This document shows, piece by piece, positions 2,950 to 58,175 of a stretch of DNA of 64,000 nucleotides. The DNA comes from an uncultured Bacteroidales bacterium (GTDB lineage Bacteria > Bacteroidota > Bacteroidia > Bacteroidales > UBA10428). Numbering within the stretch: the first letter of the stretch is position 1; each line of letters starts with the position of its first letter. A program made the position numbers and the translations under genes. The stretch covers positions 27,235-91,234 of the forward strand of contig CAWBNI010000042.1 of the NCBI GenBank assembly GCA_963790105.1. Direction: 5' to 3'. The notes under the pieces were generated by a model. That model was not told the origin of the DNA and did not search any database. It saw nothing but the letters and a program-made list of their open reading frames with translations.

Positions 2950-2978
2950 GTGAGAGTGACAAGTGACAAGTGACGAGG
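2950..2978 (+). repeat. GTGACAA-type heptamer array (GTGAGA GTGACAA GTGACAA GTGACGA GG) starting 7 nt after the adaptor stop codon; followed by hairpin ATCCCT-gtt-AGGGAT at 2987-3001
   Basis: Read directly from the sequence. Same word family as arrays at 19822, 44878, 47543 and 56989. Confidence 0.8.
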
Positions 2979-3140
2979 AAGATCGAATCCCTGTTAGGGA
3001 TACACTGTTGGTAGAAAACAAGACGGGAATGCCTCAAATAATCCCTTGGCGGTACGTTGCAGGCCCTGAAAAGGAATCAGGTTAGTTGCAATAGTTTACA
3101 CAATGTGTTAATTTCAGGTCTATTATAGGTTAGTAATCAG

Positions 3141-3168
3141 CCCCTGCCAAAACAGGGGTTGTTTTTTT
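3141..3168 (+). terminator. Rho-independent-type terminator (CCCCTG-ccaaaa-CAGGGG followed by TTGTTTTTTT)
   Basis: 6-bp GC stem, 6-nt loop and T-rich tail ~200 nt downstream of the adaptor gene. The 2944-3168 stretch would be a long 3' UTR or a separate small transcript. Confidence 0.6.
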
Positions 3169-3415
3169 GCCCCAGATAAGAATTTTTAATTATTTAACAA
3201 AATAATTAACAAAAATTGTAACAAAATTGTTGAAAAACCTGTTAATAAGTAGTAAATTTACTTTAATTAATATTTCGTAAGCATTTGTTAACTTGACTTA
3301 TGAAGTTGTTTATCAAACGGAATGGTAACTTGTTCATGTTGAGTTCTTAATTTTCGCAGCATTTATTAATTGAGGTAACATTTACGGGCAATCTACTAAC
3401 TAAAACCTTATTAAT

Positions 3416-3622
3416 ATGCTTGATGTAAAGTATAATATTAAAAGTCTCATTTCAAGCATTTATGAATGCCAGAAAAAGATCATTATTAATCGTCGATTCA
3501 TTCGGGAACTTGAATCAGAGGGGAATGATACAAATAAGCTCAGGGGGGAAATTTCCGATCTTGAACGAAAAATCAGTGAATTTCAGAAAGAACTGAGAAA
3601 AAGGTATCAATTCTCTCTTTAA
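3416..3622 (+). CDS. Hypothetical small coiled-coil protein (68 aa)
   Basis: ATG ORF in a markedly AT-rich island, heptad-like charged sequence (RELESEGNDTNKLRGEISDLERKISEFQKELRK), bracketed by two terminator-like hairpins. No family recognised. Confidence 0.35.
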   Translation: MLDVKYNIKSLISSIYECQKKIIINRRFIRELESEGNDTNKLRGEISDLERKISEFQKELRKRYQFSL

Positions 3623-3649
3623 TTAAGGTTTAACCTACACGCTATAACC

Positions 3650-3678
3650 AAAAACCACTCTTTAACGGAGTGGTTTTT
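3650..3678. terminator. Bidirectional terminator hairpin (AAAAACCACTC-tttaacg-GAGTGGTTTTT) between convergent genes
   Basis: 11-bp perfect stem with A-run on one side and T-run on the other, so it reads as stem + U-tract on both strands. Lies between ORF 3416-3622 (+) and the barrel gene (-). Confidence 0.6.
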
Positions 3679-3699
3679 GATTTTAAGGACCTTTATGTC

Positions 3700-4945: not shown

Positions 4946-4958
4946 GGAAACAATTTTA

Positions 4959-6671: not shown

Positions 6672-7688
6672 ATGAAAATATACAGAAATCATCTCGCAAT
6701 TGGCTTATTATCAGTAGTTTTATTCTTTACTTCTTTTTCCTGTAAAAAAACCATCAAGCACTGTACTTGTTGGAAACTGGGTTGAACAATCGAGATTTTG
6801 AGGGAGTTGCAAGAAGCAGTGCAACAGCTTTTTCAATTAATGATATCGGATATATCGGTCTGGGATATGACGGGGAATCCAGGTTAAGTGATTTTTGGGC
6901 ATATGATCCCGGGCGCAACAGCTGGACACAGGTTGCAGCTTTTACCGGCATTGCCAGGAATTCAGCCGTTGGCTTTGGTGCTGCGGGTAAAGGATATGTC
7001 GGTTTTGGCTATGATGGGGAGGCAAAGTTGAAGGATTTCTGGCAGTATGATCCGGCCGCTAATAAATGGGATTCTGTTAGTGCACCAAATGGTCCATCAG
7101 CCCGCTATGGTGCGGTGGCCTTTTCAATTGGCGATATTGGTTATGTAGGCACCGGGTATGACGGAAATTACCTGAAGGATTTCTGGGCCTTTGATCCTGC
7201 CGGCAATACATGGACGCAGAAAACCAGTTTTGGCGGTTCAAAGAGAAGAGATGCAGTGAGCTTTGTAATCGACGGTAAAGGGTATATCTGTACCGGCGTA
7301 AATAACGGGAGCTATGAAAAGGATTTTTATATGTATGATCCTTCCAATGACACCTGGACTGCCAAACGCAAGATTTATAATTCAAGTGACCAGTCTTACG
7401 ATGATGATTACGCGATTGTACGAAGCAACGCTGTCGCTTTTGTTATCGGTAATAAGGCATATGTAGCCACCGGAACGATCGGAAGTCTGAAAAATGACGT
7501 TTGGGAATATGATCCGCCAACGGATTTATGGGCACCAAAAACCAATTTTGAAGGAACAACCCGCACAGGATGCTGTTTCATTTTCAATAGCCGGACGTGG
7601 ATTTGTACTCACAGGAAAAAGTACAAGTTATCAGTTTGATGATATATGGGAATTTTTACCCAATGATGATTACAACAAAGAAGACTAA
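6672..7688 (+). pseudogene. Kelch/beta-propeller repeat lipoprotein (frame interrupted at least 3 times)
   Basis: ATG at 6672 gives lipoprotein signal MKIYRNHLAIGLLSVVLFFTSFSC, then the frame breaks at the A7 run 6744-6750. Repeated units (GYVGxGYDG...DFWxYDPxxNxW) in ORF 6767-7639; the C-terminus continues in ORF 7494-7688. Confidence 0.7.
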
Positions 7689-8071: not shown

Positions 8072-8786
8072 ATGAACCGGATTAATTGCCTCATTGTGGA
8101 TGATGAACCTGCTGCACTTGAAGTGCTGGAGCATTTTATAGGCAAGGTATTCTTTCTGCATCTGATCAAAAAATGTCAGCATGCCATTGAGGCCATGCAA
8201 ATCCTGGAAGAAAATAAGATCGACCTGTCTGTTTCTGGATATTAATATGCCGGATGTTGACGGGCTTCAACTGCTAAAAAGCATCAAATCAAAGCCGCTT
8301 GTTATTTTCACCACCGGTTACAAGGAATATGCCCTGAACGGATACGAGTTTGATATTGTTGATTTTCTGCTTAAGCCATTTGATTTTGAAAGGTTTCTGC
8401 GGGCTGTAAACAAAGCCAATAACCAGATCTCAAAATCCTTACGATTGCCGGTAGCGCATGCAGAAGCTCGCAGCAGTTCATCTTTGTCAAGGCTGATTAT
8501 AAACTGGTGAAAATTAACGTGGATGATATCCTGTTTGTGGAAGGACTGAAGGATTACATCAAGATATTCACAAAACAAAAGCTGATCCTGACGCTTATGT
8601 CAATGACAGCCATTGAGGAAAAGCTTCCCGCCGGATGAGTTTTTCAGGCTTCACCGGTCCTATATCATTTCTCTCAGCAAGATTGATTCGGTAAGCCGGC
8701 ACCGGGTGATTATCGGCGAAAAATTCATTCCCATCAGCGTGCCGTACAGGGAAAAGTTTTATTTGATTATTGATAAGAGTATTTAG
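8072..8786 (+). pseudogene. Two-component response regulator, LytTR DNA-binding family (frame interrupted about 3 times)
   Basis: Receiver domain (MNRINCLIVDDEPAALEVL... then FLDINMPDVDGLQLL...FTTGYKEYALNGYEFDIVDFLLKPF) and LytTR domain (INVDDILFVEGLKDYIKIFT..., FFRLHRSYIISLSKIDSV...) are spread over three frames. Stop TAG at 8784-8786. Confidence 0.8.
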
Positions 8787-8787
8787 A

Positions 8788-9072
8788 TTAGGAGGCTTAG
8801 GGGCTTAGGAGCTTAGGGGCTTAGGAGCTAGGCTGCTAGGCTACTAGGCTATAGGCTTCAGGAGTACGGCTGTTTGATATTGCCATTGTTCGGTGCTAAT
8901 ATTCACTTAAAATCAGCGTTCGCATATTCAAAGTTATTTTTAGCAAAATCAACACCGAACAATGGCAACACCAAATACTCATACTCCGAAGATTTCTAGC
9001 TCACAAATCCCTAAGCCCCTAAGCCCCTAGAAGCCCCTAAGCCCCTAAGCCCCTAGAAGCCCTAAGCCCCTA
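8788..9072. repeat. ~285-bp imperfect palindrome filling the whole convergent intergenic region: (GGGGCTTA/GGCTNCTA)n arm, inner 16-bp perfect inverted repeat, (TAAGCCCC)n arm
   Basis: Left arm 8788-8863 is G-rich on +. Right arm 9008-9072 is its reverse-complement word family and overlaps the lpdA stop. Inner inverted repeat TTGCCATTGTTCGGTG (8880-8895) / CACCGAACAATGGCAA (8953-8968) with 57-nt spacer. Confidence 0.85.
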
Positions 9073-10461
9073 AATATGAATCACCTCCCCGTACGCTGCG
9101 GCGGCGGCTTCCATCACGGCTTCCGACATGGTGGGATGCGGGTGGATGGATTTGATAATTTCGTGTCCTGTTGTTTCAAGCTTTTTGGCTATTACCATTT
9201 CTGCTATCATTTCAGTGACATTATCGCCAATGAAATGAGCGCCCAGCAATTCGCCGTATTTTGAATCGAAGATCAGCTTCACAAAGCCTTCCTTGTTTCC
9301 TGCGGCAGTTGCTTTGCCGGATGCTGTATACGGGAACTTGCCAACCTTGATATCATAGCCGGCTTCTTTTGCTGCTTTCTCGGTATATCCAACCGAAGCA
9401 ATTTCGGGAGATGTATAGGTACATCCGGGAATGTTTTTGTAATTAATGGGTTCCGGATCCTTGCCTGCAATTTTTTCCACACACACAATACCTTCTGCCG
9501 ATGCAACATGTGCCAGTGCCGGACCGGGTACAATATCACCGATGGCATAAACACCCTTTACATTCGTCCTGTAAAACTCATCAACCTTTATTTTTCCCTT
9601 ATCCGTTTCAATGCCCAGTTTCTCAAGTCCAAGATCTTCGAGGTTAGCGGTGATTCCAACGGCAGAAAGAACGATTTCAGCCTCCCTTTTCTCAACACCC
9701 TTTGGTGTCTTAATGGTTACCTGGCAGACTTTTCCGGTTGTGTCAACAGATTCCACCGAGGAGGAAGTCATCACTTCCATTCCGGCCTTTTTAAAAGATC
9801 TTTCAAGCTGTTTTGATACTTCTTCATCTTCCACAGGAACAATCGTCGGAAGAAATTCAACCAGGGTCACTTTGGTGCCAATTGAGTTGTAAAAATGGGC
9901 AAACTCGCTGCCTATGGCTCCTGAGCCGACCACCACCATGGATTGTGGCATCGTTTTGAGGGTCATGGCTTCGCGGTACCCGATAATTTTTTTCCCGTCC
10001 TGTTTCAGATTGGGTAATTCCTTTGACCGGGCTCCGGTAGCAATTATAATATGTTTGGCAGTAATTTTTGTTTCCTTTCCATCCTTGTCTGTAACGGAAA
10101 CGGTCTGGTTATCCACCAGTCGCCCGTAACCCGGGATCTGGTCAATTTTGTTCTTTTTAAAAAGAAACTGAACTCCCTTGCTCATTCCATCAGCAACACC
10201 GCGGCTGCGTTCAACCATTTTTTGTACATCAGCATGTGCTGAAGAATCAAACGTAATACCATAATCTCCTGCATGTTTCATGTAATTAAAAACCTGGGCA
10301 CTCTTAAGCAGGGCTTTTGTAGGGATGCAACCCCAGTTTAAGCATATGCCGCCAATTTCAGCTTTTTCCACTACACCCGTTTTCAGACCTAATTGTGATG
10401 CACGAATGGCCGCCACATAACCTCCCGGGCCGCTGCCAATTATAACAAGATCATAGTTCAT
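9070..10461 (-). CDS. lpdA: Dihydrolipoyl dehydrogenase (E3 component)
   Basis: Intact 463-aa ORF with FAD motif GSGPGGYVAAIRA, redox-active disulfide GGICLNWGCIPTK, NAD motif GSGAIGSEFA and C-terminal HPHPTMSEA dimer-interface motif. Confidence 0.95.
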   Translation of the reverse strand: MNYDLVIIGSGPGGYVAAIRASQLGLKTGVVEKAEIGGICLNWGCIPTKALLKSAQVFNYMKHAGDYGITFDSSAHADVQKMVERSRGVADGMSKGVQFLFKKNKIDQIPGYGRLVDNQTVSVTDKDGKETKITAKHIIIATGARSKELPNLKQDGKKIIGYREAMTLKTMPQSMVVVGSGAIGSEFAHFYNSIGTKVTLVEFLPTIVPVEDEEVSKQLERSFKKAGMEVMTSSSVESVDTTGKVCQVTIKTPKGVEKREAEIVLSAVGITANLEDLGLEKLGIETDKGKIKVDEFYRTNVKGVYAIGDIVPGPALAHVASAEGIVCVEKIAGKDPEPINYKNIPGCTYTSPEIASVGYTEKAAKEAGYDIKVGKFPYTASGKATAAGNKEGFVKLIFDSKYGELLGAHFIGDNVTEMIAEMVIAKKLETTGHEIIKSIHPHPTMSEAVMEAAAAAYGEVIHI

Positions 10462-12821: not shown

Positions 12822-12926
12822 ATGGTGGTCAAAGTTAAAAATTTATATGGGAATAGCCAGTAACCGCTTTCGTTTCATATGAACATTCTGAAGGTTTGTT
12901 TTTCGTATTATTGCAAAAAGGTTCAC

Positions 12927-13634
12927 ATGATCCAGCTTGTCCTTACCGGTGATGGTTCACATACCCTGTACATTCCTGAATTGAATGAACATTATCATTC
13001 AACTTACGGTGCATTAACTGAATCGCTTCATGTTTTTATCCGGAGCGGCCTGGATTGTTTTGCCGGCAGCCGCGAGATCTCAATTTTTGAAACCGGATTT
13101 GGAACGGGACTGAATGCACTTCTGACAGCGTTAAGTGCAATGAGGTCGGGCATGAAGGTATGGTATTTTGCCGTTGAGAAGTATCCTGTTGATCCAGAGA
13201 TAGTGAAACAGCTTAATTACCCTCATCTCCTGAAGGATGCTGAAATTGACGCTGAAGCATTATTTAATGCTATTCATGAGGCCGACTGGGAAACCATGAC
13301 TGAAATCCATCCCTGTTTTCATCTGAAAAAGATGAAAGGGGATATGTGCAGTTTTGTTCCGGATGGCAGCTATGACCTGGTTTATTTTGATGCTTTCGCG
13401 CCGGACAAGCAACCGGAAATATGGACGGGTGAGATCATGCAACGCCTTGTTTCATCGATGAAACCTGGCGGTATCTTTACCACATACTGCGTGAAAGGAT
13501 CAGTGAAACGAATTTTGAGAGATTGCGGCCTCACTTTGGAAAAACTGCCCGGCCCGCCAGGGAAGAGGGAGATTCTTAGGGGGACGAGGGACCAGGGACT
13601 AGGGACTAGGGACGAGGGACGAGGGACAGGATAG
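12927..13634 (+). CDS. mnmD: tRNA (mnm5s2U34) methyltransferase MnmD-like (MnmC methyltransferase-domain homologue)
   Basis: Inner ATG at 12927 gives MIQLVLTGDGSHTLYIPELNEHYHSTYGALTES... and SAM fold ETGFGTGLN, YFDAFAP...PEIW. The last ~18 codons (RGTRDQGLGTRDEGRGTG) are translated from the GGGACGA array. Confidence 0.65.
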   Translation: MIQLVLTGDGSHTLYIPELNEHYHSTYGALTESLHVFIRSGLDCFAGSREISIFETGFGTGLNALLTALSAMRSGMKVWYFAVEKYPVDPEIVKQLNYPHLLKDAEIDAEALFNAIHEADWETMTEIHPCFHLKKMKGDMCSFVPDGSYDLVYFDAFAPDKQPEIWTGEIMQRLVSSMKPGGIFTTYCVKGSVKRILRDCGLTLEKLPGPPGKREILRGTRDQGLGTRDEGRGTG

Positions 13635-13824
13635 GAAGAATGAACAATGTGCCGAAGGCATCCCTTCGGGAGAAAACGATTTGCTAGATGTGCCAATGTG
13701 CCAATGTGCTAATATGCCAATGTGCTAATTTTTTTCTATGTTTCTTTGTGCCATGCTAGTGCCTTTGTGGCAAAACTGCAGAACTGCAGAACCAGACTGC
13801 ATAACTGCAGAACCGTATAACTGC
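13579..13824 (+). repeat. Composite mosaic element: (GGGACNA)7 array, hairpin element hp1, (GTGCCAAT)5 array, conserved box GTGCCTTTGTGGCAAAACTGCA, (AACTGCAG)n array
   Basis: GGGACNA array 13579-13630. hp1 13638-13684, with stem CCGAAGG-catc-CCTTCGG at 13652-13669. GTGCCAAT array 13688-13729. Box 13759-13780. AACTGCAG array 13773-13824. Confidence 0.85.
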
Positions 13825-13848: not shown

Positions 13849-13879
13849 AAACCCCAAAGATTTGCATCCTTTGGGGTTT
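13849..13879. terminator. Bidirectional terminator hairpin AAACCCCAAAG-atttgcatc-CTTTGGGGTTT downstream of rpmH
   Basis: 11-bp perfect stem flanked by A-run/T-run, 25 nt downstream of the rpmH stop (minus strand). Confidence 0.65.
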
Positions 13880-13903: not shown

Positions 13904-14059
13904 TTACTTACTTGCTATTTCGTCGGAAACAGTCAGTCTTTTTCTTCCCTTGGCACGGCGGCTGGATAGTACTTTGCGTCCATTGGCTGTGGACATTCTT
14001 TCCCTGAATCCGTGTTTATTGCGCCTCTTTCTGTTGGATGGCTGATATGTTCTTTTCAT
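13904..14059 (-). CDS. rpmH: 50S ribosomal protein L34
   Basis: Not in the ORF track (51 aa). My translation is [51 protein letters not shown], the universally conserved L34 sequence pattern. Confidence 0.95.
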
Positions 14060-14128: not shown

Positions 14129-14135
14129 TATTTTT

Positions 14136-14300
14136 GGCAATTGTTTCTTGGCAATGTGCTATTATGCTAATGTGCCAATGTGCCAATCTGCCAATGTGCC
14201 ATATGTGCCAATGTGCCAATGTTCATGAATGCCAATGCGCTAATCATATACTATCGTCTCCTTGTGCCTTAGTGCCTTTGTGGCAAAACTGCAAAACTGC
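14136..14300 (+). repeat. Composite element: (GTGCCAAT/GTGCTAAT)n array, box GTGCCTTTGTGGCAAAACTGCA, AACTGCA units. A direct copy of the module on the other side of rpmH
   Basis: Array ~14136-14245, box 14272-14293, AAACTGCAAAACTGCGG to ~14300. Same order and orientation as 13688-13824. Confidence 0.8.
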
Positions 14301-14311
14301 GGACCAGTCCC

Positions 14312-19827: not shown

Positions 19828-19926
19828 CAAGGGACGGGGACAAGGGACAGAATTGCACTCAGAGACAGGATATTCTGTAACCCCTACCCTGCCGCGCTTG
19901 TCCCTCTGTCCCTCGTCCCTCGTCAC
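19822..19926. repeat. Inverted heptamer arms bridging convergent nadE and recQ stop codons
   Basis: Left arm GAGTGACAAGGGACGGGGACAAGGGACAG (19822-19850). Right arm CTTGTCCCTCTGTCCCTCGTCCCTCGTCAC (19897-19926) is its reverse-complement word family. 46-nt spacer. Both stop codons are the TGA of a GTGAC unit. Confidence 0.85.
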
Positions 19927-35069: not shown

Positions 35070-35145
35070 CCGGTACCAGAAGAAATAACTCCGGATACCG
35101 GAAGAAATAGCACCGATACCAGAAGAAACTGCACCTGTACCGGCT
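35070..35145 (+). repeat. 21-nt (7-codon) tandem repeat x3.5 immediately upstream of ftsE, encoding P-x-P-E-E-x-x units
   Basis: Units are CCGGTACCAGAAGAAATAACT (35070-35090), CCGGATACCGGAAGAAATAGCA (35091-35112, 22 nt), CCGATACCAGAAGAAACTGCA (35113-35133) and CCTGTACCGGCT... An ATG at 35052 lies upstream. Confidence 0.8.
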
Positions 35146-40053: not shown

Positions 40054-40086
40054 CTCAATCAACAATCAACTATCAACAATCAACTA
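40054..40086 (+). repeat. (CAATCAAC)n degenerate octamer array
   Basis: CTCAATCAACAATCAACTATCAACAATCAACTA. A related single unit lies at 40001-40010, a hairpin ATCCT-gttagcg-AGGAT at ~39961-39977, and the same word family occurs at 50283-50312 and (reverse) 57916-57946. Confidence 0.75.
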
Positions 40087-44895: not shown

Positions 44896-45117
44896 CAAGT
44901 GACAATGTGCTAATGTGGCGAATGTGGTAGGATGTGCAAATGTGCTAATCGTGCCAATGCCATGTGCCAAAGGGCAATGTGCAAACTATGCCAACGTGCA
45001 AAACTGCAAGACTCATAAACTATATTTCTTATGTGCCATGGCAATGCCTTTGTGGCAATAACTGCAAAACTGCATAACTTCATAATCATAATTCATAATT
45101 CATAATTCTTAATTTCT
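44878..45117 (+). repeat. Continuous 240-bp chain of drifting short tandem arrays: GTGACGA, GTGACAA, TGTGCTAA/GTGCCAA, GTGCAAAAC, box, TGCAAAAC/TGCATAAC, CATAATT
   Basis: GTGACGA/GTGACAA 44878-44905. ATGTGC/GTGCCAA units 44904-45000. 10-bp palindrome TGCCATGGCA 45034-45043. Box TGCCTTTGTGGCAATAACTGCA 45045-45066. CATAATT units 45079-45117. Confidence 0.85.
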
Positions 45118-45154
45118 TATTTTTGTCTATCTTTAAATCAAATAAAGGCAGATC

Positions 45155-46354: not shown

Positions 46355-47543
46355 ATGGAGCCATTCAGTCGCGTTATCCTGAAATCGGGGAAAGAACAAT
46401 CAATCAAGCGCCTTCATCCCTGGATTTTTTCAGGTGCCATAAAGAAAATCGAGGGAAAGCCGGCTGAAGGTGACACTGTGGAAATATTTTCCGGCACCGG
46501 AGAATACCTGGCAACCGGTCATTACCAGATAGGATCCATTGCAGTGCGGATTTATTCTTTTCACCAGGTCACTACCGGATTTTGATTTCTGGAGAATGAA
46601 ATTCAAGTCTGCCTTGGATTTGCGCACTACACTCGGACTCACTGATAATAAAGACACCAATGTATACCGGCTTGTAAACGGTGAAGGTGATGGCATGCCC
46701 GGTTTTATTGTCGATTATTACAATGGCATCGTGGTGATGCAAATGCATTCCGTTGGCATGTACCTTTTGAGGGAACAGCTGGCAGAGGTAATAAAGGCCT
46801 TGTATGGCGACAAATTACTGTCCATTTATGATAAAAGCGAGGGTACAATTCCTGTGAAAGCCGGGTTAGGGATCAAAAACAAGTTCATTTACGGTGATCA
46901 GTCCGTTATTGAGATCATTGAAAACGGCTGCCGTTTTTCAATCGATGTTATTTCCGGACAAAAAACAGGATTTTTTATTGATCAGCGTGAAAACCGCGAA
47001 CTTCTTACCCGGTACATCAAAGGCAAAGATGTGCTCAATATGTTTTGCTATACCGGAGGATTTTCGGTTTATGCCTTGCATGGCGGCGCTGCTTCGGTTG
47101 ATTCTGTTGATAGTTCGGCCCAGGCCGTGGAACTTACCAAACAGAATGTTAGCCTGAATCCTGAAGGTACCGGCAGGCATCAGACCTATATTGCCGATGC
47201 GTTTTCCTTTTTAAATGACATCGCTGATAAATATGATGTGATCATTCTCGATCCCCCTGCGTTTGCCAAGCATACCGATGCACTCGACAATGCACTGATG
47301 GCTTATAAACGGCTTAATGCCAAAGCAATTGAACAGATCAGGCCGGGAGGGATCATTTTTACATTTTCCTGTTCCCAGGTAGTGAACAGGGAGAATTTCA
47401 GGCGGTCGGTTTTTGTAGCCGCAGCCAATACCGGGCGCAATGTCAGGATACTTCATCAGCTTGTCCAGCCACCGGATCATCCCGTCAGCATCTTTCATCC
47501 CGAGGGGGAATACCTGAAGGGACTTGTGCTGCAGGTGGAATAG
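46355..47543 (+). pseudogene. rlmI: Class I SAM-dependent rRNA (cytosine-C5) methyltransferase, RlmI-like (one frame interruption)
   Basis: N-terminal PUA-like part (MEPFSRVILKSGKEQSIKRLHPWIFSGAI...) in ORF 46355-46585. Methyltransferase core (VLNMFCYTGGFSVYA..., ILDPPAF...) in ORF 46539-47543. Confidence 0.75.
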
Positions 47544-47783
47544 AGTGACAAGGGACAAGGGACTAGGGACAAGTCAGTTTGAATGTTGCCGAAGTCATCA
47601 CTTTGGGACACCAAAACAAATTTCGAAAATGTGAAAATGTAGACTAAGATTCAATTTGTAGAATCCTTTGTGCCTGTTGTGGCAGAAATATTCACGCCGA
47701 CTTTAGAACATTCGCTCAGAAGCCTGCAGAACCTGCAGAACTGCAGAACCTACTTGTTACTCGTCACCTGTCCCTTGTCACTC
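47543..47783. repeat. Mosaic element between convergent rlmI and MORN genes, with inverted heptamer arms
   Basis: Left arm GAGTGACAAGGGACAAGGGACTAGGGACAAGT (47543-47574). hp1 variant CCGAAGT-catc-ACTTTGG (47589-47606). Box variant CCTTTGTGCCTGTTGTGGCAGAAAT (~47665-47690). CTGCAGAA array 47722-47750. Right arm ACTTGTTACTCGTCACCTGTCCCTTGTCACTC (47752-47783), the inverted heptamer arm. Confidence 0.85.
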
Positions 47784-48223
47784 TTAACAAGTTCTCCTTT
47801 ATCGTACATCCCGCTCTGGCTGGTGCCATTAGCCCAGGTATATTTTCCCTGTCCCTGGAAAAGGTTATCCTTGAAGTAGCCGGTATATTTATCCCCGTTG
47901 GGATAGAAATAAATGCCATATCCGTTTTGAATTCCCTGTTCCCAGGCGCCTATATATTTTGATCCATCGGACCATATGTATGTGCCCTGGCCCTGGAATT
48001 TATCCTTTACCCACATGCCGTCATAGGAACTGCCGTCATTGCCCTTCAGCATGCCCCGGCCTTCTCTTAGTCCGTTCACAAAACCTCCTTCATAGGAAAA
48101 CCCGTTTGAATATCGATAGGTTCCCTTTCCATTTTCACAATTTCCATATACACATCCCTGCTTGTCCTGTGCATAGGCCATCACCGGTAAGAAGAAAATC
48201 AGGTAAAGAATCGTTCTTAGCAT
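47750..48223 (-). CDS. Secreted MORN-repeat protein (157 aa)
   Basis: Signal peptide MLRTILYLIFFLPVMAYAQ. About 6 MORN units (YEGGFVNGLREGRGM, YDGMWVKDKFQGQGTY, YIGAWEQGIQNGYGIY, YTGYFKDNLFQGQGKY). The last 9-10 codons (SDKGQVTSNK) are encoded by the heptamer arm. Confidence 0.8.
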   Translation of the reverse strand: MLRTILYLIFFLPVMAYAQDKQGCVYGNCENGKGTYRYSNGFSYEGGFVNGLREGRGMLKGNDGSSYDGMWVKDKFQGQGTYIWSDGSKYIGAWEQGIQNGYGIYFYPNGDKYTGYFKDNLFQGQGKYTWANGTSQSGMYDKGELVKSDKGQVTSNK

Positions 48224-48323: not shown

Positions 48324-49894
48324 ATGAAAACCTACAACCAAGAAAATACCCGATCTGCTCTGGACAGGTCTCATCGCAATTTTTACACTTGTGGTGCATA
48401 TGGCCACATACAATACCCTGGGTTTTCACCGGGATGAACTGCTTTACCTTGCTCTGGGCAGGCATCTTGCCGCAGGATACTGGTCAAATCCGCCCTTAAT
48501 TGGATTTATAAGTTATTTTACGCAGCTTCTGCCGGGCAGTACACTCTTTACTTTGAGATTATTTCCTGCCCTGGCCGGTGCTTTGCTGATCATCATAACC
48601 GGACTGATGACACGGGAACTGGGTGGCAAAACCTATGCCCAGGTACTGGCCTGCATCTGCCCTGGCTGTTTCACTTCTTTTCATGCGTGCCTTTTCCATG
48701 TTCCAGCCTGTTTGCTTTGATATTCTGTTCTGGTCGCTTATTCTGTATGCCTTTTTGCGGTATATCAACACCGAAAAACCTGTATATCTGATCCTTGTCG
48801 GAGTGGCATTCGGTTTTGGCTTTCTGAATAAATACATGGTGATTTTCCTGGCAGCCGGACTGGCACTTGGCTGTCATACCCACACCATACCGAAGGCTGT
48901 GGATAAACAAGTATTCATGGTTGGCCATTCTCATTGCGCATGCTGTTGTTGCTTCCAAATATCATCTGGCAGTATATTCATGGTTTTCCGGTTCTGCATC
49001 ATATGAAGGAATTGAAGGAAACCCAGCTTGTGAATGTTAAGCGAATGAATATTGTTATGGATCAGATCCTGATGTTTACAATCAGCGCCCTGGTATGGGT
49101 GGCCGGGTTGATATGGCTGCTCAAATCGCTGAATGCCAAAAAATTCAGGGTATTCGGATATGCCTATGTGGCGATCATGCTTATCTTTCTATTCCTGCGC
49201 GGGAAAAGTTATTATATGGCAGGGCTTTATCCCATCCTGTTTGCAGCCGGTGGTGTTTCATGGGAAAAGTCGCTGAAAAGAACAGTTTCGCGGATACTCC
49301 TGGTTCTTTTTATTATTCTTCTCACCATCCCGATTCTGCCCGGTGCCATTCCATTTATGTCAGCTCCCAAGCTGGTTTCTTATTTCAGCAGGATTCCGCC
49401 TAAAATGGGCGGTGAGGCACTGGTTACGCTGGGAAGACGGTAAAATGCACCCGTTGCCGCAGGATTATGCGGATATGCTGGGCTGGGATGAACTGGGCAG
49501 CGTTGTGTTGAAAGCCTGTGATACCATTAAGGACAAAAAAAGTATCATGATTTACTGTGAAAATTATGGACAGGCCGGAGCGGTGGATTATTGCAACAGA
49601 TGTCACGGGCTGCCTGAAGTTATAAGTTTTGCAGATGCCTACCGGCTATGGGCACCGGATACGATCAGCAAAGCAAAGAATATCTTTTTGTATGTAAATA
49701 ATGAACTGGGTGGGGATGTGGATTCCCTTTTTGCAAATATTATAGTTGCAGGAAGCATCACAAATCCCTATGCGAGGGAAAAGGGAACTACTGTGTACAT
49801 GTGCCGCGAGCCAAGAGCGGACTTTCCGGCGTTTTGGAAGAGGAGGATGGAGGAGGTGAGAGGGGAGAGGGGAGAGGTGAGAGAGGAGAGGTGA
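48324..49894 (+). pseudogene. Glycosyltransferase family 39 (ArnT / dolichyl-phosphate-mannose-type membrane glycosyltransferase), frame interrupted at least 4 times
   Basis: ATG 48324 (MKTYNQE) shifts at the A4 run 48343-48346 to KIPDLLWTGLIAIFTLVVH...GFHRDELLYLALGRHLAAGYWSNPPL. Further polytopic segments lie in ORFs 48391, 48623, 48934, 49095 and 49343. The C-terminal tail (EEVRGERGEVREER) is translated from the purine-rich array. Confidence 0.7.
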
Positions 49895-50312
49895 GATATG
49901 AGTAGGGAGTAGTAAGAAGTAAGGAGTAAGGAGTAAGGAGTAGGGAGTAGGGAGTGAGGAGTAAGGAGTAATGGAGTGAGGAGTAGGAGTAATTCCTTTA
50001 GGGGTGAGACATTGGGGCGAATAATGAACAATGAGCAATGTGCCGAAGGCATCCCTTCGGGGAGAACTATTTGCAATTTGCAATATGCAATGTGAAAAGC
50101 AAATGTGCAATGTGCTAATGTGCAAATGTGCAAATGTGCTAATGTGCTAATGTGCAAATGTGCTGACTCAGTTATGCATAAACAAGGTACATATTACCCT
50201 GGAAGAATCAAATCACTGATTTGCAGTTACTGCCATTCACCATTCACCATTCACCATTCACTTTTTCAACCGCAGAACTACCTATCAACTATCAACCATC
50301 AACAATCAACTA
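49838..50312 (+). repeat. Largest composite mosaic region (~475 bp) with six array types and an hp1 copy
   Basis: GAGAGGG/GGTGAGA and GGAGTAA purine arrays 49838-49992. hp1 50023-50074, with stem CCGAAGG-catc-CCTTCGG at 50043-50060. AATGTGC-type array 50069-50165. CATTCAC array 50233-50261. CAATCAAC array 50283-50312, overlapping the CE15 stop. Confidence 0.85.
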
Positions 50313-51683
50313 TTTTTCAAAATACCGGCTTGCAAAATCAAGGAAAACAGGCCAGTTGGGAGCCGGGGTATGACCCCCGTCGTGCTGGCGAAAGGCAATT
50401 TCACCCTGAACCAGGGAAGTGCCTACTGGTGGAAATATATGGGTTCCAAGATCATTTTTACCGAGTAACTTATAAACCGGGCCGGCCGCAACAGCAGCCA
50501 TAAACATCCCCCTGGCATCCACCCAGGCATCACCAACTTCTCCACTGCTGATAAATACCGGCCGGGGTGCGCATAATGCGATCAGCTCATGAGCATCCAC
50601 GGGCAGATCGTCCCATGTCAGCGGTCCGGCATATTTCATGAAATTTCCGGCCATCCAGTGGTACTCTCCTGAACTGGCAATATTTTCAACCAGTTCACCG
50701 GCATTTCTCCTGTGCAGTTTAACTCCTGCCTCTCCCGAAGAACTTATAAACACAATGGCAAACCGGCTGTCATAAGCCATGGCCACAGCGGCTGCTTTTC
50801 CAAACCGGGAATGTCCTTCCATTCCAACATGTCTGGCATCAATCGATTTATCCGTTTCCATATAATCAAGAACCCGGCTGGCACCCCAGGCCCAGGCACG
50901 GAGAGCACCCCAATCGTCCGGTTTGCGGGGTTTTCCGCCATTCACCAGACCAATTATTCCCCTTGTTAATCCGGCCCCATAATCCGCCTGTACACTGGTG
51001 GGTAGATAAACCGCATAACCCCAGCCCCGGTTAAGTACCTGCTGCTGCCAGGAGGGTTGGTCGTTTCCGGCACTTCCCATGGGAGGGGGCGGAAGTTTAA
51101 AGCCCTTCGGAAAAACATAACCGAATTCCATGATTACAGGAACCGGTTTTGAAATATTGGCGGGTAGCGTGATAGTTACCTGTATATCTACCTGCACGGA
51201 GGGACAGGCAGAATTATCCACATGACCCACGAGTTTTTTTGAAATCACGCGTACATTGCCTTCCATTGTTTTTGTAATGCTGATTAGTTCCCATTTCACA
51301 GAAGGTGTTTTAGATGGCACACGGCCGTATATTTCCCTGTCAAAATCTTCCACAATTTCAGGACGTCGTTCTTTCCACCAAATTTCAGGAGTGTCGACTT
51401 TTCTGCCATTTTTCAAAACCAGGGGGTCGGGCAGTCTGGGATATGGATTTGCCTTGCTTTCATCATAATTGGCTGCATTGGGAGCATTCGGATCCATCCC
51501 GTTTACTCCCGGCCTGAGGGAAGTTATGTTCAGCAGTCCCATCATATATTGATGATCCTGTTCGGTTATCCTTTTGATACTATCCCATGCCGGACCCGGC
51601 TGCGCTGACAAATAGCTGCATGTTAAAACATAAAGGAAAACGATCGAAAGCAGGATTTTTAGTTTATGGGATATCATCACCAA
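50310..51683 (-). CDS. Carbohydrate esterase family 15-like glucuronoyl esterase (alpha/beta hydrolase)
   Basis: Intact 457-aa ORF with signal peptide. Nucleophile motif GHSRFGKAA (bacterial CE15 G-x-S-R-x-GK type) and C-terminal FRQHDGGH. Adjacent to a GH115 gene. Family call is from remembered motifs. Confidence 0.6.
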   Translation of the reverse strand: MVMISHKLKILLSIVFLYVLTCSYLSAQPGPAWDSIKRITEQDHQYMMGLLNITSLRPGVNGMDPNAPNAANYDESKANPYPRLPDPLVLKNGRKVDTPEIWWKERRPEIVEDFDREIYGRVPSKTPSVKWELISITKTMEGNVRVISKKLVGHVDNSACPSVQVDIQVTITLPANISKPVPVIMEFGYVFPKGFKLPPPPMGSAGNDQPSWQQQVLNRGWGYAVYLPTSVQADYGAGLTRGIIGLVNGGKPRKPDDWGALRAWAWGASRVLDYMETDKSIDARHVGMEGHSRFGKAAAVAMAYDSRFAIVFISSSGEAGVKLHRRNAGELVENIASSGEYHWMAGNFMKYAGPLTWDDLPVDAHELIALCAPRPVFISSGEVGDAWVDARGMFMAAVAAGPVYKLLGKNDLGTHIFPPVGTSLVQGEIAFRQHDGGHTPAPNWPVFLDFASRYFEK

Positions 51684-51693
51684 TAATTAGAAA

Positions 51694-51750
51694 TTTTCAA
51701 ATCTTCAAATTTTCAAATCTTCAAATCAACAAATCAATAAATCAATAAAT
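51694..51750. repeat. (TTCAAAT / ATCAATAA)n degenerate array filling the GH115-CE15 intercistronic gap
   Basis: TTTTCAAATCTTCAAATTTTCAAATCTTCAAATCAACAAATCAATAAATCAATAAATTCA, read directly. It spans essentially the whole 67-nt gap. Confidence 0.8.
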
Positions 51751-55551: not shown

Positions 55552-55589
55552 TTTGAAATTATTGGTGCTACTAATTAATACTTCAAGCC

Positions 55590-56797
55590 GTGAAAATTAC
55601 AAATGCCAAAGTGATTATTTGCAGTCCGGGAAGGAATTTTGTCACTCTCAAGATATTCACAGACGAGGGAGTATACGGCCTGGGGGATGCCACCCTCAAT
55701 GGGATGGAGAAGGCTGTTGTTTCTTTTCTTGAAAGCTACTGCATCCCAGCCCTGATTGGTATGGATCCGCGGAATACAGAAGATATCTGGCATTATTTTT
55801 ATCGGGGCATTTACTGGAAAAGGGGCTCTGTAAGCATGGCGGCCATTTCCGCCATTGATATGGCCCTTTGGGATATCAAGGGAAAGATGCTAAACACTCC
55901 GTTGTATAATCTCATTGGTGGTAAAAGCCGTGACAAGGTGTTGGTGTATGTGCATGTAAACGGAAATGACCTGAATGAAGTGTTTGAAAAAGCGAAAATG
56001 GCTATTGAGTCAGGCTATGAAGCCATCCGCATACAATGCGGGATTCCGGGCATTTCGCATTCATATGGAGTTTCAAAGGATGCCCGGTTTTATGAACCTG
56101 CCGAAAAAGGCTTACCTCCGGTTCAATATTGGGATACCTCCAAATATCTGAATTTTGTGCCTCACCTTTTTGAAAAAATACGGGCTGCAGTCGGTGATTC
56201 GATCCATCTTTTGCATGATGTGCACCATCGTTGTACGCCAGTTGAGGCTGCCCGGCTTGCCCATGAACTGGACCCGTTTCATTTATTCTGGCTTGAGGAC
56301 CCGGTTTCAGGCGAGTTGCAGGAGGGTCTTCGCCTGATCAGGCAGCATTCGCATACACCTATTGCCATTGGAGAGGTTTTTAATACAGGATATGATTATA
56401 CAACCCTGATCACGGAACAACTGATCGATTTTATCCGGATGCCGGTATCGCACGGGGGAGGAATAACCCATCTGCAGAAAGTGATGGCATTGGCCTCTTT
56501 TTATCATATTCAATCCGGATTTCACGGGGCCACCGATCTTTCACCTGTATGCCTGGCTGCATCACTGCATTTCAACCTGGCGGTCAACAATTTCGGGATA
56601 CAGGAATACATGCCGCATAATGATATGGTAAATGAAGTTTTCAGGGTGAATTACCATCTTGACAAGGGACATCTCTATATCAATGATAATCCGGGCATTG
56701 GAGTAGATATAGACGAAGAGAGTGCCGCAAAATTTCCCTATGTCAAGGCTTCCTTCCGGTGAACCGGAAGACAGATGGTACTTTGTTCTATTGGTAG
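55590..56797 (+). pseudogene. manD: Enolase-superfamily D-mannonate dehydratase (ManD), frame interruption in the last ~15 codons
   Basis: MKITNAKVIICSPGRNFVTLKIFTDEGVYGLGDATLNG... is typical of the ManD subgroup. ORF 55590-56762 ends ...FPYVKASFR. Shifting at GGCTTCCTTCCGG (~56745-56757) gives ...FLPVNRKTDGTLFYW, then TAG at 56795-56797, a ManD-like C-terminus. Confidence 0.8.
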
Positions 56798-56804
56798 TGA
56801 ATAT

Positions 56805-57000
56805 GTTCTGCAGTCCTGCGGTTTTGCAGTTTTGCAGTTTTGAAGTCATGCAGTCTCAGTCGTGCAGTCGTGCAGTCATGCAGTCGCCTTCGTGCAGTTC
56901 TGCGGTTTTGCAGTTTTGCAGTTTCAGTCACTCCCTCTCAATTCTCATCTCTCATCTCTCATCTCTCATCTCTCATCTCTCATCTCTCGTCACTCGTCAC
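56805..57000. repeat. Composite: (GTTTTGCA/GTCGTGCA)n TGCAG-type arrays, near-perfect (TCTCATC)6.5 array, inverted GTGACGA units overlapping the next gene's stop
   Basis: TGCAG-type units 56805-56929. TCTCATC array 56943-56988. GTCACTCGTCAC 56989-57000 (GTGACGAGTGAC on the minus strand), abutting the TAG stop of the minus-strand gene 57000-57911. Confidence 0.85.
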
Positions 57001-57911
57001 TACTTCATCCACTTCACCGGCCATGGCAGCATATTCCGCGTGATCACCGGGTAATGTGTGACAACTGAACCAAATCCCGAATTAAAATAGGCGATACCGG
57101 GGATATTGGATCCGGCAAAATCAAAGACGAGTCCTGAACCTGCGTTCTTGCTGATCATATGATTCACCAGCATATACATTGCCTGGTTTTCCTTTCCTTT
57201 TTCCGTGGATGCGCATACCTGGAACAGGCACCTTCCCAGGGTAGTAATAAACCATCCGGCAGCAACGAGTTCACCCGTATGGCTGTATACGCCAACAATC
57301 TCTCCGGTTGCCTGCTGAACGCTTGCAGATGTGATCCTTAAAAGGGTCGGGTAAAATGTTTTCCGGGTACCGGTGAGTTGTTTCTCCAGGTTATTTTTAA
57401 TAAAACGGGTGAATGCAGAAGGGGAAGGTCCCTGCTTTACAATCAGCCCGGCATGTATCGCCTTTTGAATATTCCTTCGGCAATTGCGGTGATAATTACT
57501 GGTTAGCTCAATTGAGGAAGGGTGCAAATCAAGAATAAAGTTTTTTCGGGTTGAAAAGGTGATATCGGAATGCTGAACGTTGTTATCTGAATTAAGTTGA
57601 ATTTGGACATATTTGTATTTCAGCGGGATCGCTGATAAAAATTCAGTGATTGTCTCCGGCCTGACCGGGGAGGGTGAAAAAATCCCCAATTGCTGGGTGA
57701 AGTAAGGTTGATACAGGTAATTGATCCCGAATTTACGGCCATGGGTTAAGGGCATTACGGCGAGGAAGTCATCCTCGACCAGGGCATCCCATTCCGGGCA
57801 TACGGCATCGAGCCACCATGAAAGGGCGTAGGGTAGCCTGTTTTGGGAGTTTGCGATGCAGGCGTCCCATTTTTGCAGGTCGATGGAGGAGTGGGGGAGG
57901 TGGTGGATCAT
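57000..57911 (-). CDS. Hypothetical protein, FemAB/GNAT-fold-like (tentative)
   Basis: Intact 303-aa ORF. The N-terminal pattern (IDLQKWDACIANSQNRLPYALSWWLDAVCPEWDALVEDDFLAVMPL...YQPYFTQQLGIFS) resembles conserved Bacteroidota proteins I recall as annotated GNAT/FemAB-like. Weak call. Confidence 0.4.
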   Translation of the reverse strand: MIHHLPHSSIDLQKWDACIANSQNRLPYALSWWLDAVCPEWDALVEDDFLAVMPLTHGRKFGINYLYQPYFTQQLGIFSPSPVRPETITEFLSAIPLKYKYVQIQLNSDNNVQHSDITFSTRKNFILDLHPSSIELTSNYHRNCRRNIQKAIHAGLIVKQGPSPSAFTRFIKNNLEKQLTGTRKTFYPTLLRITSASVQQATGEIVGVYSHTGELVAAGWFITTLGRCLFQVCASTEKGKENQAMYMLVNHMISKNAGSGLVFDFAGSNIPGIAYFNSGFGSVVTHYPVITRNMLPWPVKWMK

Positions 57912-57915
57912 ATTT

Positions 57916-58061
57916 TAGTTGATTTGGTTGATAGTCTGCTGGTTGCTTCACCCGGGGTTATTGAGATTGAAGCACTTCGTGCTTGAGTTCATCTTTCCCG
58001 CACGGTATTCATAGCATCTGCGGATTGGTTATTGCAGATTGAAGCACTTCGTGCTTTTTTT
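57916..58061 (-). repeat. Reverse-oriented CAATCAAC-type units plus two tandem hp2 elements (copies C and D)
   Basis: 57916-57946 is TAGTTGATTTGGTTGATAGTCTGCTGGTTGC. Copy C 57949-57984 (CACCCGGGGTTATTGAGATTGAAGCACTTCGTGCTT). Copy D 58027-58056 (GGTTATTGCAGATTGAAGCACTTCGTGCTT) is followed by a T-run. On the minus strand each reads AAGCAC-gaa-GTGCTT + CAATCTCAATAACC, matching hp2 copies A and B. Confidence 0.8.
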
Positions 58062-58094
58062 GTTTCCTGAACGAATGCCTACAGCACACCTATT

Positions 58095-58175
58095 CATTGT
58101 TCACTGTTCATCGTTCTTCGTTCCTCGTCCCTTCTGTCTCTCCTTGTCCCTCGTCTCATCGTCCCTCGTCCCTTC
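58095..58175 (-). repeat. Graded heptamer array drifting from CATTGTT to TCGTCCC (GGGACGA on the minus strand), overlapping the 3' end of the minus-strand gene
   Basis: CATTGTT CACTGTT CATCGTT CTTCGTT CCTCGTC CCTTCTG TCTCTCC TTGTCCC TCGTCTC ATCGTCC CTCGTCC CTTC. The first five units each differ from the previous one by 1-2 substitutions. Confidence 0.85.

Follow-up and report, generated by a model that had tools for sequence, protein, structure and literature searches.

The cyanobacterial short tandemly repeated repetitive (STRR) sequences are built of the heptamers CCCCAGT (STRR1), TTGGTCA (STRR2) and CAACAGT (STRR3), and small dispersed repeats (SDR/NIE) embedded in tandem heptamer arrays were reportedly described from Nostoc punctiforme by Elhai et al. 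in 2008. Bacterial interspersed mosaic elements (BIMEs) are inverted repetitive extragenic palindromes (REPs) of about 35 nt, not tandem 7-8-nt arrays; a REP near a stop codon is said, from work by Liang, Rudd and Deutscher in 2015, to affect translation and decay. Here I describe a system of 7- and 8-nt tandem arrays and small hairpins in a 64,000-nt stretch of DNA from an uncultured Bacteroidales bacterium (GenBank assembly GCA_963790105.1, contig CAWBNI010000042.1, positions 27,235 to 91,234 of the forward strand). The window below means the whole of this stretch, and positions are counted from its first letter. The starting point was a model's reading of the letters (the original prediction), which took the arrays for modules of a family of intergenic mosaic elements with a conserved module order.

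Intergenic heptamer repeats, TAACTGA among them, have been recorded in Beggiatoaceae, cyanobacteria and five Bacteroidetes (MacGregor, 2015, PMC4679880); a single-strand protein-binding platform has been proposed for the TAACTGA repeats, and in the summary given there CspB binds heptamer repeats with one protein per heptamer. As quoted in the same paper, Mrazek et al. (2007) found an excess of long 7-nt-unit repeats in the non-coding DNA of some large free-living genomes, within the class of long simple sequence repeats (LSSRs, 5-11-nt units). Heptamers that form G-quadruplexes (G4), GGGAATC in Xanthomonas and GGGGAYT in Nostoc, were reported by Rehm et al. (2015, PMC4692102).

Results

The arrays and hairpins of the window make up a transcription-oriented mosaic of gene 3' flanks in a Bacteroidales genome, composed of slippage-prone 7/8-nt arrays and three small hairpin families. 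Arrays were called with Tandem Repeats Finder (TRF), and those with a period of 7 (17 arrays) or 8 (12 arrays), which together are 29 of the 35 TRF arrays in the window, were retained. Merged, they come to 28 arrays and 1,316 nt, or 2.1% of the window, whereas 100 dinucleotide-preserving shuffles, done within each coding or non-coding segment, gave a mean of 0.03 and a maximum of 1. LSSRs in the sense of Mrazek (2007, 5-11-nt units) are short-unit repeats both longer and more numerous than composition predicts, and 28 against 0.03 places the arrays among them. The original prediction had listed 14 loci, and TRF finds a period-7/8 array at every one (2955, 8788/9009, 13581, 14152, 19826/19900, 35848-36340, 37023-37228, 40056, 44877-45114, 47547-47751, 49839-50313, 51691, 56805-57001 and 57914/58093). 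Per 10 kb, array density is 4.4 in the window, 2.7 in congeners and 0.2-0.3 in a broader sample of Bacteroidales, a roughly 10-fold difference between the window's genus and the other Bacteroidales.

With at most one mismatch allowed, and with rotation and strand disregarded, the 29 arrays fall into 14 unit families, 7 of which are found again at 2-5 separate loci (the CTGCAG type at 5, the GTGACRA and GGGACGA types at 4 each, the AATGTGCN type at 3, and TTAGGGGC, AAATCGT and CAATCAA at 2 each), which bears out the small shared vocabulary that had been proposed. I refer to the modules by letter. P arrays are of purine-rich heptamers, GGGACRA/GTGACRA with the relatives GGAGTAA, GAGGGGA, ATGAGAG and GCTTAGGG; M arrays are of AATGTGCN octamers; B, the "box" of the original prediction, is itself about three octamer units of CCTTNGTG; Q arrays are of AACTGCAG octamers, whose core is the palindrome CTGCAG; and there are A/T/C-rich arrays of AAATCGT, CATAATT, CAATCAA and CCATTCA. 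Mostly owing to the Q arrays, CTGCAG (the PstI site) is present 41 times in the window, where composition predicts about 12.

Arrays are a feature of gene 3' ends: 16 lie in convergent spacers, 11 in co-directional ones and 0 in the 10 divergent ones, the longest of which measures 491 nt. P arrays begin 0-17 nt from stop codons, nearer the end of the upstream ORF (open reading frame) than the downstream ORF. That the arrays are intergenic is true of 27 of the 29, which lie mostly outside ORFs of at least 100 aa (the coding reference, covering 78% of the window and leaving 22% outside), but several run through the last codons of a gene (ORF tails at 13581-13634 and 47750-47784) or hold its stop codon at their start or inside (19825-19827, 44893-44895, 9070-9072). 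The strand of the arrays was assessed in 49 arrays that start at most 30 nt from a stop codon, in the window and in 169 related loci (2.27 Mb; single loci and genomes are given L numbers below). Their purine content in the mRNA sense is above 0.6 in 29 and below 0.4 in only 3, C is scarce, and stop triplets are confined to the sense strand of the unit in 21 arrays and to its antisense strand in 4 (binomial p = 9e-4). Stops in all three sense frames, present in 31 of the 49, follow automatically from a 7- or 8-nt period. Away from stops there is no sense/antisense asymmetry of stop triplets (25 and 25 of 61 arrays). It is the upstream gene, not a single fixed order of elements, that decides how arrays are oriented. 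Arrays adjacent to starts are G-poor, which fits the A-rich leaders of Bacteroidota, free of Shine-Dalgarno sequences. On their antisense face the stop-adjacent arrays have a C content of 0.32-0.55, a G content of 0-0.17 and 2-5 YC dinucleotides per 10 nt, compared with 1.2 for the window; Rut sites are YC-rich, G-poor and poorly structured (PMC9499579).

The hairpin modules fall into at least three unrelated families. H1, of about 29 nt, has a 7-bp stem, GTGCCGAAGG-CATC-CCTTCGGGAGAAAAC, and copies at 13649-13677, 47586-47618 and 50040-50067 (all +); it lies after P and before M in L090 and at three loci of the window. The copy near 47588 carries one compensatory change (G-C to U-A) and one G-U pair, and the H1 copy of L170 a G-U pair. 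H2, of about 55 nt, is two hairpins joined by (C/T)TCAATAACC, with copies at 36226-36276 (+, linker TTCAATAACC), 37098-37150 (+) and 57943-57992 (-, stem A AAGCAC/GTGCTT, co-oriented with the minus-strand genes that flank it), and a partial copy of only hairpin A and linker at 58027-58056 (-). Read directly from the sequences, all variants of its stem A are perfectly paired (GCCTC/GAGGC, GGCCTC/GAGGCC, AAGCAC/GTGCTT, CCCC/GGGG, CGCC/GGCG and GACCCC/GGGGTC) around a constant loop GAA(G), and all copies are oriented in the sense of the upstream gene. H3, of about 35 nt, has the form AATCCC-N4-GGGAT...TGTYGGTAGAA, with a copy at 2985-3019 (+, AATCCC-TGTT-AGGGAT...TGTTGGTAGAAAAC) and a variant at 35880-35920 (+, ATATCCT-TTTAG-AGGATAT...GGCAGTAGAAG); at all distinct loci found it sits in sense after a P array, 25-56 nt past the stop. 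In L174 (5924-6111) the H3 module is present in four tandem copies with a 56-nt period. By analogy only, H1 and H2, with conserved structure and compensatory changes, belong with the small dispersed repeats of Elhai (2008; 21-27 nt).

None of the three modules is followed in sense by a U tract, terminator-like patterns are not enriched in the 35-52 kb region (21 against 15.9 +/- 4 expected), and a canonical intrinsic terminator is found only after rpmH (13849-13879), so intrinsic termination was rejected as a general explanation. Nor did a named family emerge: over the whole window Rfam gives 0 matches at the gathering threshold, the best sub-threshold match (FuFi-1, 22.6 against 59.6 bits) being at chance level. 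A single 20-nt match to H1 in viral contigs is likewise at about chance level, on a rough estimate of the collection's size, and was set aside.

The original prediction also held that the modules follow a single order from a gene's stop codon to the next start codon. Sub-chains of that order hold, but no locus has the full chain. One sub-chain runs from the stop through P, H1 or H3, M and B to Q; the other, seen twice, runs from H2 through an AAATCGT array to the start (ATG). In 6 of 6 composites, relatives included (13682-13824, 14152-14301 and 44899-45079 in the window; L086, L089 and L090), Q shares the strand of M and lies 3' of it, and P stands ahead of M in 3 of 3, again with relatives included. 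Of the five loci offered as exemplars, 13579-13824, 47543-47783 and 49838-50312 are convergent spacers that end at another stop, and the right-hand part of each belongs to the other gene's 3' flank; the universal chain runs together two 3'-flank mosaics that face each other. Inverted Q-type arrays are present at 36057-36144, 37023-37099 and 56805-56924. In Draconibacterium sediminis the same class order follows the orthologous methyltransferase stop, as P, AATGCNNN, others and then CTTTGTG units just ahead of the next ATG, and it recurs in a Maribellus spacer with a higher-order repeat (L026 3900-4750, Maribellus luteus XSD2), where 850 nt hold three copies of about 290 nt made of octamer arrays of TCAATCCN, ACTGCGAC, AATGCNNN and TAGCYNNN. 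A reading of the B box as a Bacteroidetes -33/-7 promoter was rejected: unlike the real rpmH promoter close by, the box departs from TTTG-N19-21-TAnnTTTG.

Nor is the element one conserved mosaic, as had been supposed: its module set is gained, lost and resized between close relatives. Against congeners with 87-91% nucleotide identity in the coding flanks, alignment is lost exactly at the stop codons, and the mosaics beyond differ while drawing on one vocabulary. In the stretch from the M1 peptidase stop to the conserved rpmH promoter (TTTG-N19-TACCTTTG), for example, the window has Q'-B'-M', L081 has P-H3-ATTTACG arrays, L086 has Q'-M'-TTTTAGT arrays, L087 has P-H3-TTTTAGT arrays and L088 is an empty site; neither a target-site duplication nor shared termini appear when the L088 site is compared with the four differently filled ones. 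The rpmH promoter, of Bacteroidetes type, is itself conserved, and the mosaics stop just upstream of it; the rpmH gene (13904-14059, minus strand; L34, identical protein; also seen in L082, L085 and L089) is inverted relative to its conserved neighbours Methyltransf_30 and M1 peptidase in more distant relatives. In the L090 spacer orthologous to 44877-45135 the order stop, H1, M, Q, CATAATT, ATG is kept, with two copies of H1 where the window has none, no B box, nine Q-type units against three, and other unit counts. Within the species (L170) the non-array parts are near-identical and indels of 3-13 nt fall in the arrays, and in one spacer M units have given way to a gained H3-like hairpin. 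Several genera have a tandem array after the orthologous methyltransferase stop, each of its own unit (AAGTGAA, GAGTAGG x34, AATTTGAA, TGAAGGAT, TGAGAGG), so the position outlasts the sequence. In the unrelated high-GC contigs L178, L180, L184, L185 and L188 (IMG/VR, GC 0.51-0.69), (GGGACRA)n stands directly after a TGA stop with a pyrimidine-rich array downstream of it, the exact complement CCCTCGTCCCTCG in L188 and a related array (CCCCTCG or CTCATCC type) in L178/L180, L184 and L185. The layout is thus not confined to Bacteroidales.

In three convergent spacers the stop-adjacent arrays of the two genes are reverse complements of each other, so that the whole spacer would fold from one stop codon to the other. 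Predicted minimum free energies, with z scores from 200 shuffles, are -130.5 kcal/mol (z -10.9) for 8785-9075, -88.9 kcal/mol (z -7.3) for 47541-47787 and -53.3 kcal/mol (z -6.2) for 19820-19930. The first has a 5' arm of TTAGGRGC x5 and then CTAGGCTN x4 (8788-8857, +), an inner palindrome with 43-nt arms that are 79% complementary (8861-8987, core CACCGAACAATGG, strand unassigned) and a 3' arm of GCTTAGGG x8 (9009-9073, -) in the sense of gene 9070-10461(-), its last unit supplying the TAG stop of that gene. In the second, the 5' arm is a P array (47545-47573, +) 4 nt past a methyltransferase stop, and the 3' arm a P array (47757-47784, -) that reads in the direction of gene 47750-48223(-) and encodes its C-terminal tail. 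In the third, the first unit GTGA of the 5' P array (19825-19849, +) holds the NadE stop, and the 3' P array (19899-19926, -) lies in the sense of the RecQ-like gene 19923-21833(-) and includes its TGA.

Orthologous spacers were compared in five further genomes of the genus, L170 of the same species and L171-L174. The arms of the LytTR/Pyr_redox spacer are TTAGGGGC::GCCCCTAA in the window, L170 and L173, CTTCTAGGC::GCCTAGAAG in L171, CTAGGCTT::AAGCCTAG in L172 and TAGGCTNN::NNAGCCTA in L174; they always match each other, though the units differ among genomes. At NadE/RecQ the P/P' arms persist in the window, L170 and L171 while the loops between them vary greatly in size, the spacer length from stop to stop inclusive being 101, 69 and 31 nt respectively. 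A palindromic element with the core CACCGAACAA(T/G)G occupies the centre of convergent spacers at 8861-8987 in the window, at 3760-3830 in L090 and at about 330-470 in L174, where it is expanded into (TCGGTGNT)n arrays.

The host can be placed by its genes and its relatives. Pfam domains in the window include GH115, CarboxypepD_reg, DUF5063, an ECF sigma factor and MacB/HlyD-type efflux proteins; no tRNA genes were found in it. The nearest species representatives are uncultured Bacteroidales at 71% amino-acid identity, followed by Draconibacterium, Maribellus and other Prolixibacteraceae at about 60%, and a cyanobacterial origin was rejected on Pfam content, closest genomes (Bacteroidales, Prolixibacteraceae-like) and motif counts. 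An independent contig of the same species (L170, 97.1% identical over 21.8 kb) has the same arrays with variation, and arrays are also present in a short-read JGI assembly (L090/L089) of a relative at 92% amino-acid identity and in the isolate genomes of Maribellus luteus and Draconibacterium sediminis. The octamer classes AATGYNNN, ACTGCRRN and CTTTGTG are shared by Maribellus, Draconibacterium and metagenome-assembled genomes (MAGs). Two outcomes that the original prediction had named as damaging to it, arrays absent from an independent assembly and orientation at random, therefore did not occur. Several window genes are split into overlapping ORFs in different frames (14312-16298(-), 37234-38434, 38470-39803, 43501-44895 and 48391-49894); the M1 peptidase, split in the window, is a single 674-aa gene in L170. 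Since relatives are intact where the window is frameshifted, these splits probably reflect indel errors in the assembly, or else pseudogenes. They affect exact unit counts and not the existence of arrays.

The remaining modules are best followed along the window. A P array, GTGACRA x3 (2955-2976, +), begins 12 nt past the stop of the HlyD-family gene 1816-2943 and is followed by H3. The last codons of the methyltransferase gene 12879-13634 run through a P array of GGGACNA x6.7 (13581-13627, +), and beyond it and H1 stand an M array of ATGTGCCA/ATGTGCTA x5-6 (13682-13729, +), a B box of about three octamers, CTTTGTGC/CTAGTGCC/TTTGTGGC (13743-13772, +), and a Q array of AACTGCAG x7 (13770-13824, +). 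On the far side of rpmH, an M array x9 (14152-14245, +) leads to a B box and then a Q array of AAACTGCA x2 (14260-14301, +; 94% to 13757-13790). A peptide reading of ORF 14134-14346(+) through this M array, as a Cys-rich CQCAN repeat, was rejected: the array is disrupted in L170, 8-nt indels shift its frame, and the ORF is very probably not a gene. A role at the level of nucleic acid and not peptide, which had been proposed from unit length, is supported: the repeats are non-coding, share a vocabulary and follow a syntax in part.

Past the ABC ATPase stop by 3 nt, a P array of GGGACRA x4.4 (35848-35878, +) precedes the H3-like hairpin, a second P array x3.4 with inverted Q-type arrays of AGTTTTGC, TGCAGTCG and GTTCTGCA (36032-36144, +), H2, and AAATCGT x4.7 (36308-36340, +), which ends 9 nt ahead of the ATG at 36349. 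The stop at 37020 is followed after 3 nt by GTTCTGCA/GTTATGCG x8-9 (37023-37099, +), H2 and an AAATCGT-type array x11.7 (37150-37228, +) that runs up to the ATG at 37234, and CAATCAA/CTATCAA x4 lies at 40056-40086 (+). The stop (44893-44895) of the frameshifted gene 43501-44895 is included in a P array of GTGACRA x4 (44877-44905, +), beyond which come degenerate M arrays, a B box (45029-45059) and a Q array (45055-45079), together 44899-45079 (+), and CATAATT x6 (45073-45114, +) upstream of the DUF5063 gene.

Between the arms of the 47541-47787 spacer, H1 is followed by GAAAATGT x2, a B-like CCTTTGTGCCTGTTGTGGCA and CTGCAGAA x3-4 (47625-47751, +). GAGGGGA/GAGGTGA x6 and then GGAGTAA x11.7 (49839-49992, +) have an ORF end inside them at 49894; GAACAAT x3, H1, ATTTGCA x3 and an M array of AATGTGCN x8 follow (50019-50164, +), and facing them are CCATTCA x4 and CTATCAA x4.6 (50233-50313, -), which read TTGATAG in the sense of gene 50310-51683(-) and adjoin its stop. 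Octamer arrays (51691-51750, -) fill the 67-nt spacer between GH115 (stop 51751) and an esterase (start 51683). Arrays of GTTTTGCA/GCAGTCGT x15 (56805-56924, +) begin 43 nt past the stop at 56762, ATGAGAG x7.7 and GTGACGA x2 (56935-57001, -) adjoin the stop of gene 57000-57911(-) in its sense, and P-type arrays of GGGACGA and CGATGAA (58093-58173, -) are either downstream of gene 58315-59325(-) or at its frameshifted end. Two other repeats of the window are unrelated to the 7/8-nt system, a 21-nt repeat x4 (35058-35141) just upstream of the called GTG start of the ABC ATPase (35153) and Kelch-like 144-nt repeats (7029-7531) inside gene 6767-7639.

Discussion

The explanation that I prefer is that slippage-prone arrays and small dispersed hairpin repeats provide 3'-end structure and insulation, or are tolerated in that role, and taken as a whole it is evenly poised between right and wrong. 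Its descriptive and evolutionary part is very probable. Arrays would grow and shrink by replication slippage, often seeded on a heptamer or octamer that bears a stop codon, which would explain the adjacency to stops, the sense bias and the stops in all frames; hairpin modules would be inserted, lost and duplicated in the manner of very small mobile repeats, and recombination among dispersed arrays would reshuffle the modules. The layout is an array at the stop that is G/A-rich and C-poor on the mRNA strand, then sense hairpins, then the octamer arrays M, B and Q, and at last G-poor A/T/C arrays ahead of the next start. The functional part is tentative, and I infer every step of it from sequence. 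The mosaics may lend the 3' end of the mRNA a stable structure and shield adjacent transcription units from one another, with the stop-to-stop hairpins as candidate barriers in both directions. The antisense face of the arrays next to stops, rich in C and YC and poor in G, may load Rho on transcripts that run backwards into the gene, and given its Rut-like composition such arrays could halt those transcripts.

Several observations weigh against this explanation. The commonest unit of the window, GGGACGA, has no stop triplet, and the M-B-Q composite 14152-14301 is antisense to both of its flanking genes, the minus-strand M1 peptidase and rpmH. ORF ends served as gene ends, and the window has apparent frameshifts. 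Few loci are independent, and several of the composites are orthologues of one another and so not independent (window 44899 with L090 1133, window 14152 with L086). The stop-to-stop hairpin is weak or absent in the NadE/RecQ spacer of L173 (z = 0.0) and the LytTR spacer of L172 (z = -1.4). Both strands of the spacers fold about equally well, so RNA-level and DNA-level causes are not separable this way, and strand asymmetry by G-U pairs was discarded as uninformative. Finally, the complementarity of the arms could stem from inverted duplication or intramolecular gene conversion instead of selection.

The rival that survives best, rather unlikely all the same, is that the mosaics are neutral junk: slippage arrays and selfish hairpin repeats would pile up in 3' flanks, which are unconstrained where promoters are not, and serve no cellular function, the sense bias being a by-product of seeding on purine-rich stop contexts and the palindromic arms a product of inverted duplication or gene conversion. 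The replacement of content between congeners, with the empty site of L088 lacking visible consequence, is what such a process would leave; so are the halt of the arrays just upstream of the conserved rpmH promoter, the enrichment of stop triplets in sense units, the absence of the hairpins from some congeners and the roughly 10-fold difference in density between the genus and other Bacteroidales. It accounts less well for arm units that co-vary across species at the same spacer, for some tandem array after the same orthologous stop in different genera with different units, for octamer classes shared by Maribellus, Draconibacterium and MAGs, and for the strict sense orientation of the hairpin modules.

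A periodic protein platform, on which each 7-8-nt unit would bind one single-strand RNA- or DNA-binding protein of the cold-shock/OB-fold, RRM-type Rbp or KH kind, so that the array coats or titrates its binder and controls translation, decay or termination, is quite improbable. The strict 7/8-nt periodicity, the unit classes common to several genera and the position-specific composition would suit it, and CspB, as summarised in PMC4679880, offers a precedent of one protein per heptamer. However, the units at one position differ widely among relatives (AAGTGAA, GAGTAGG, TGAAGGAT, GGGACGA), which argues against one sequence-specific binder, and the arrays of convergent spacers are predicted to be double-stranded.

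I give about the same low credence to non-autonomous transposable elements, of the miniature inverted-repeat (MITE) kind or the kind in which REPs are moved by a REP-associated tyrosine transposase (REP/RAYT), where a transposase gene located elsewhere would supply the enzyme that moves composites or hairpins, with the arrays as parts or by-products of the element. H1, H2 and H3 are indeed polymorphic for presence at orthologous sites, H1 is tandemly duplicated in L090 and H3 in the four copies of L174, and the spacer 47542-47784 is flanked by 38-nt inverted arrays. Yet neither a target-site duplication nor fixed ends show when the filled site is compared with the empty one, each congener has boundaries of its own, and the inverted "ends" of 47542-47784 are the arrays that the two genes have at their stops, of which L090, where the rest differs, lacks one. 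A MITE with target duplication was rejected for want of consistent ends, and the window ORFs scanned against Pfam, which are only some of the ORFs, include no transposase.

Very improbable as a general explanation is that G3-tract heptamers past the upstream ORF form G-quadruplexes in RNA or non-template DNA. It has in its favour at least four units of (GGGACRA) at 13579-13604 and 35850-35873 and GCTTAGGG at 9009-9070, all on the sense strand of the upstream gene, and the Xanthomonas and Nostoc repeats likewise lie nearer the upstream ORF (PMC4692102). But just four array-borne G3N1-7 x4 motifs are predicted in the window (13579-13604, 35850-35873, 9009-9037 and 9042-9070), most arrays (GTGACAA, GGAGTAA, ATGAGAG and all M, Q and A/T-rich ones) have no G3 tracts, and the predicted partner of the G-rich arm in convergent spacers is its complement; with so few segments qualifying, G4 formation was rejected in that general role. 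An artefact of assembly or sequencing in a long-read MAG, which the frameshifted genes might suggest, is effectively refuted by the same arrays, varied, in L170 and by arrays in the short-read L090/L089 assembly and the Maribellus luteus and Draconibacterium sediminis isolates.

Returning to 3'-end structure and insulation, a bolder version, speculative and improbable, would join the observations into a dedicated and evolvable "3'-end grammar". Convergent stop-anchored arrays would be kept complementary by selection or by templated copying and would serve as length-tunable bidirectional terminators or insulators with polar antisense Rho loading, and H1-H3 would be the smallest mobile elements yet in Bacteroidota, targeted to arrays. 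If that were true, the stop-(GGGACGA)n...(TCGTCCC)n-stop arrangement of unrelated high-GC contigs would be a widespread and unrecognised mode of gene ending. Attachment to stop codons, a strand set by transcription, co-varying hairpin arms and the gain and loss of modules between strains are testable regularities, and since the cultured relatives Maribellus luteus and Draconibacterium share the array classes, termination, insulation, Rho dependence and protein binding can be tested directly. In a practical sense, array regions are hot spots for mis-assembly and, in annotation, for false C-terminal extensions and spurious small ORFs.

How does this system compare with those already described? 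The TAACTGA repeats (PMC4679880) resemble it as intergenic heptamers with stops in all frames that can overlap the upstream stop, in the several heptamer types per spacer of Gramella, Aequorivita and Elizabethkingia, and in having relatives with the same neighbourhood and no repeats. They differ in that TAACTGA, a single unit, lies mainly just upstream of starts, whereas the window arrays are mainly stop-associated and comprise many units, octamers, hairpin modules and stop-to-stop palindromes; the window has 11 single copies of TAACTGA and 0 tandems. The G4 heptamers (PMC4692102) also lie nearer the upstream than the downstream ORF, with the same flanking genes kept while length and sequence vary between related strains, but their G3 tracts are found in a minority of window arrays, the unit differs, and neither GGGAATC nor GGGGAYT occurs in tandem in the window. 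LSSRs are a statistical class that does not cover module syntax, hairpin modules or arm covariation. A CRISPR array can be set aside: the units are 7-8 nt, head to tail and without spacers, whereas CRISPR repeats are 24-48 nt with unique spacers of like length between them. The literature searched holds no description of such a system in Prolixibacteraceae or other Bacteroidales, nor did I find in it the strand rule set by transcription at stops, the cross-genus octamer classes, the three hairpin modules or the co-varying stop-to-stop hairpins. The general kind is already known, from LSSRs, STRRs, SDR mini-elements in heptamer arrays, TAACTGA repeats and G4-type heptamers.

The original prediction had offered STRR heptamers and REP/BIME mosaics as the nearest analogies, and both are reasonable as such. 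REPs and BIMEs are extragenic, mostly 3' of genes, strain-variable, and modular in combining hairpin units and linkers; as imperfect palindromes that alternate in orientation, with linkers of defined kinds, they differ from the window's tandem 7-8-mers with three unrelated hairpins in a single (sense) orientation, where no REP consensus was seen. With STRRs the window shares tandem heptamers in intergenic DNA at many loci per genome, but the arrays are not STRRs: STRR1-3 have 0 tandems on either strand of the window, and the host belongs to Bacteroidales, unlike the (heterocystous) cyanobacteria with HIP1-rich DNA that carry STRRs. The small dispersed repeats of Nostoc are reportedly 21-30-nt hairpin repeats with compensatory changes, in or next to heptamer arrays, polymorphic for presence and sometimes nested or duplicated, and the window matches this in H1, which lies inside AATGTGCN arrays in 0, 1 or 2 copies at orthologous sites. 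Host phylum, unit sequences and hairpin sequences are all different, HIP1 has 0 copies in the window, octamers are as common there as heptamers, and its modules take their orientation from the upstream gene and are attached to stop codons. Studies of tandem heptamer arrays with mini-hairpins inside them have dealt almost only with cyanobacteria; the window provides a rich and comparable system in Bacteroidales.

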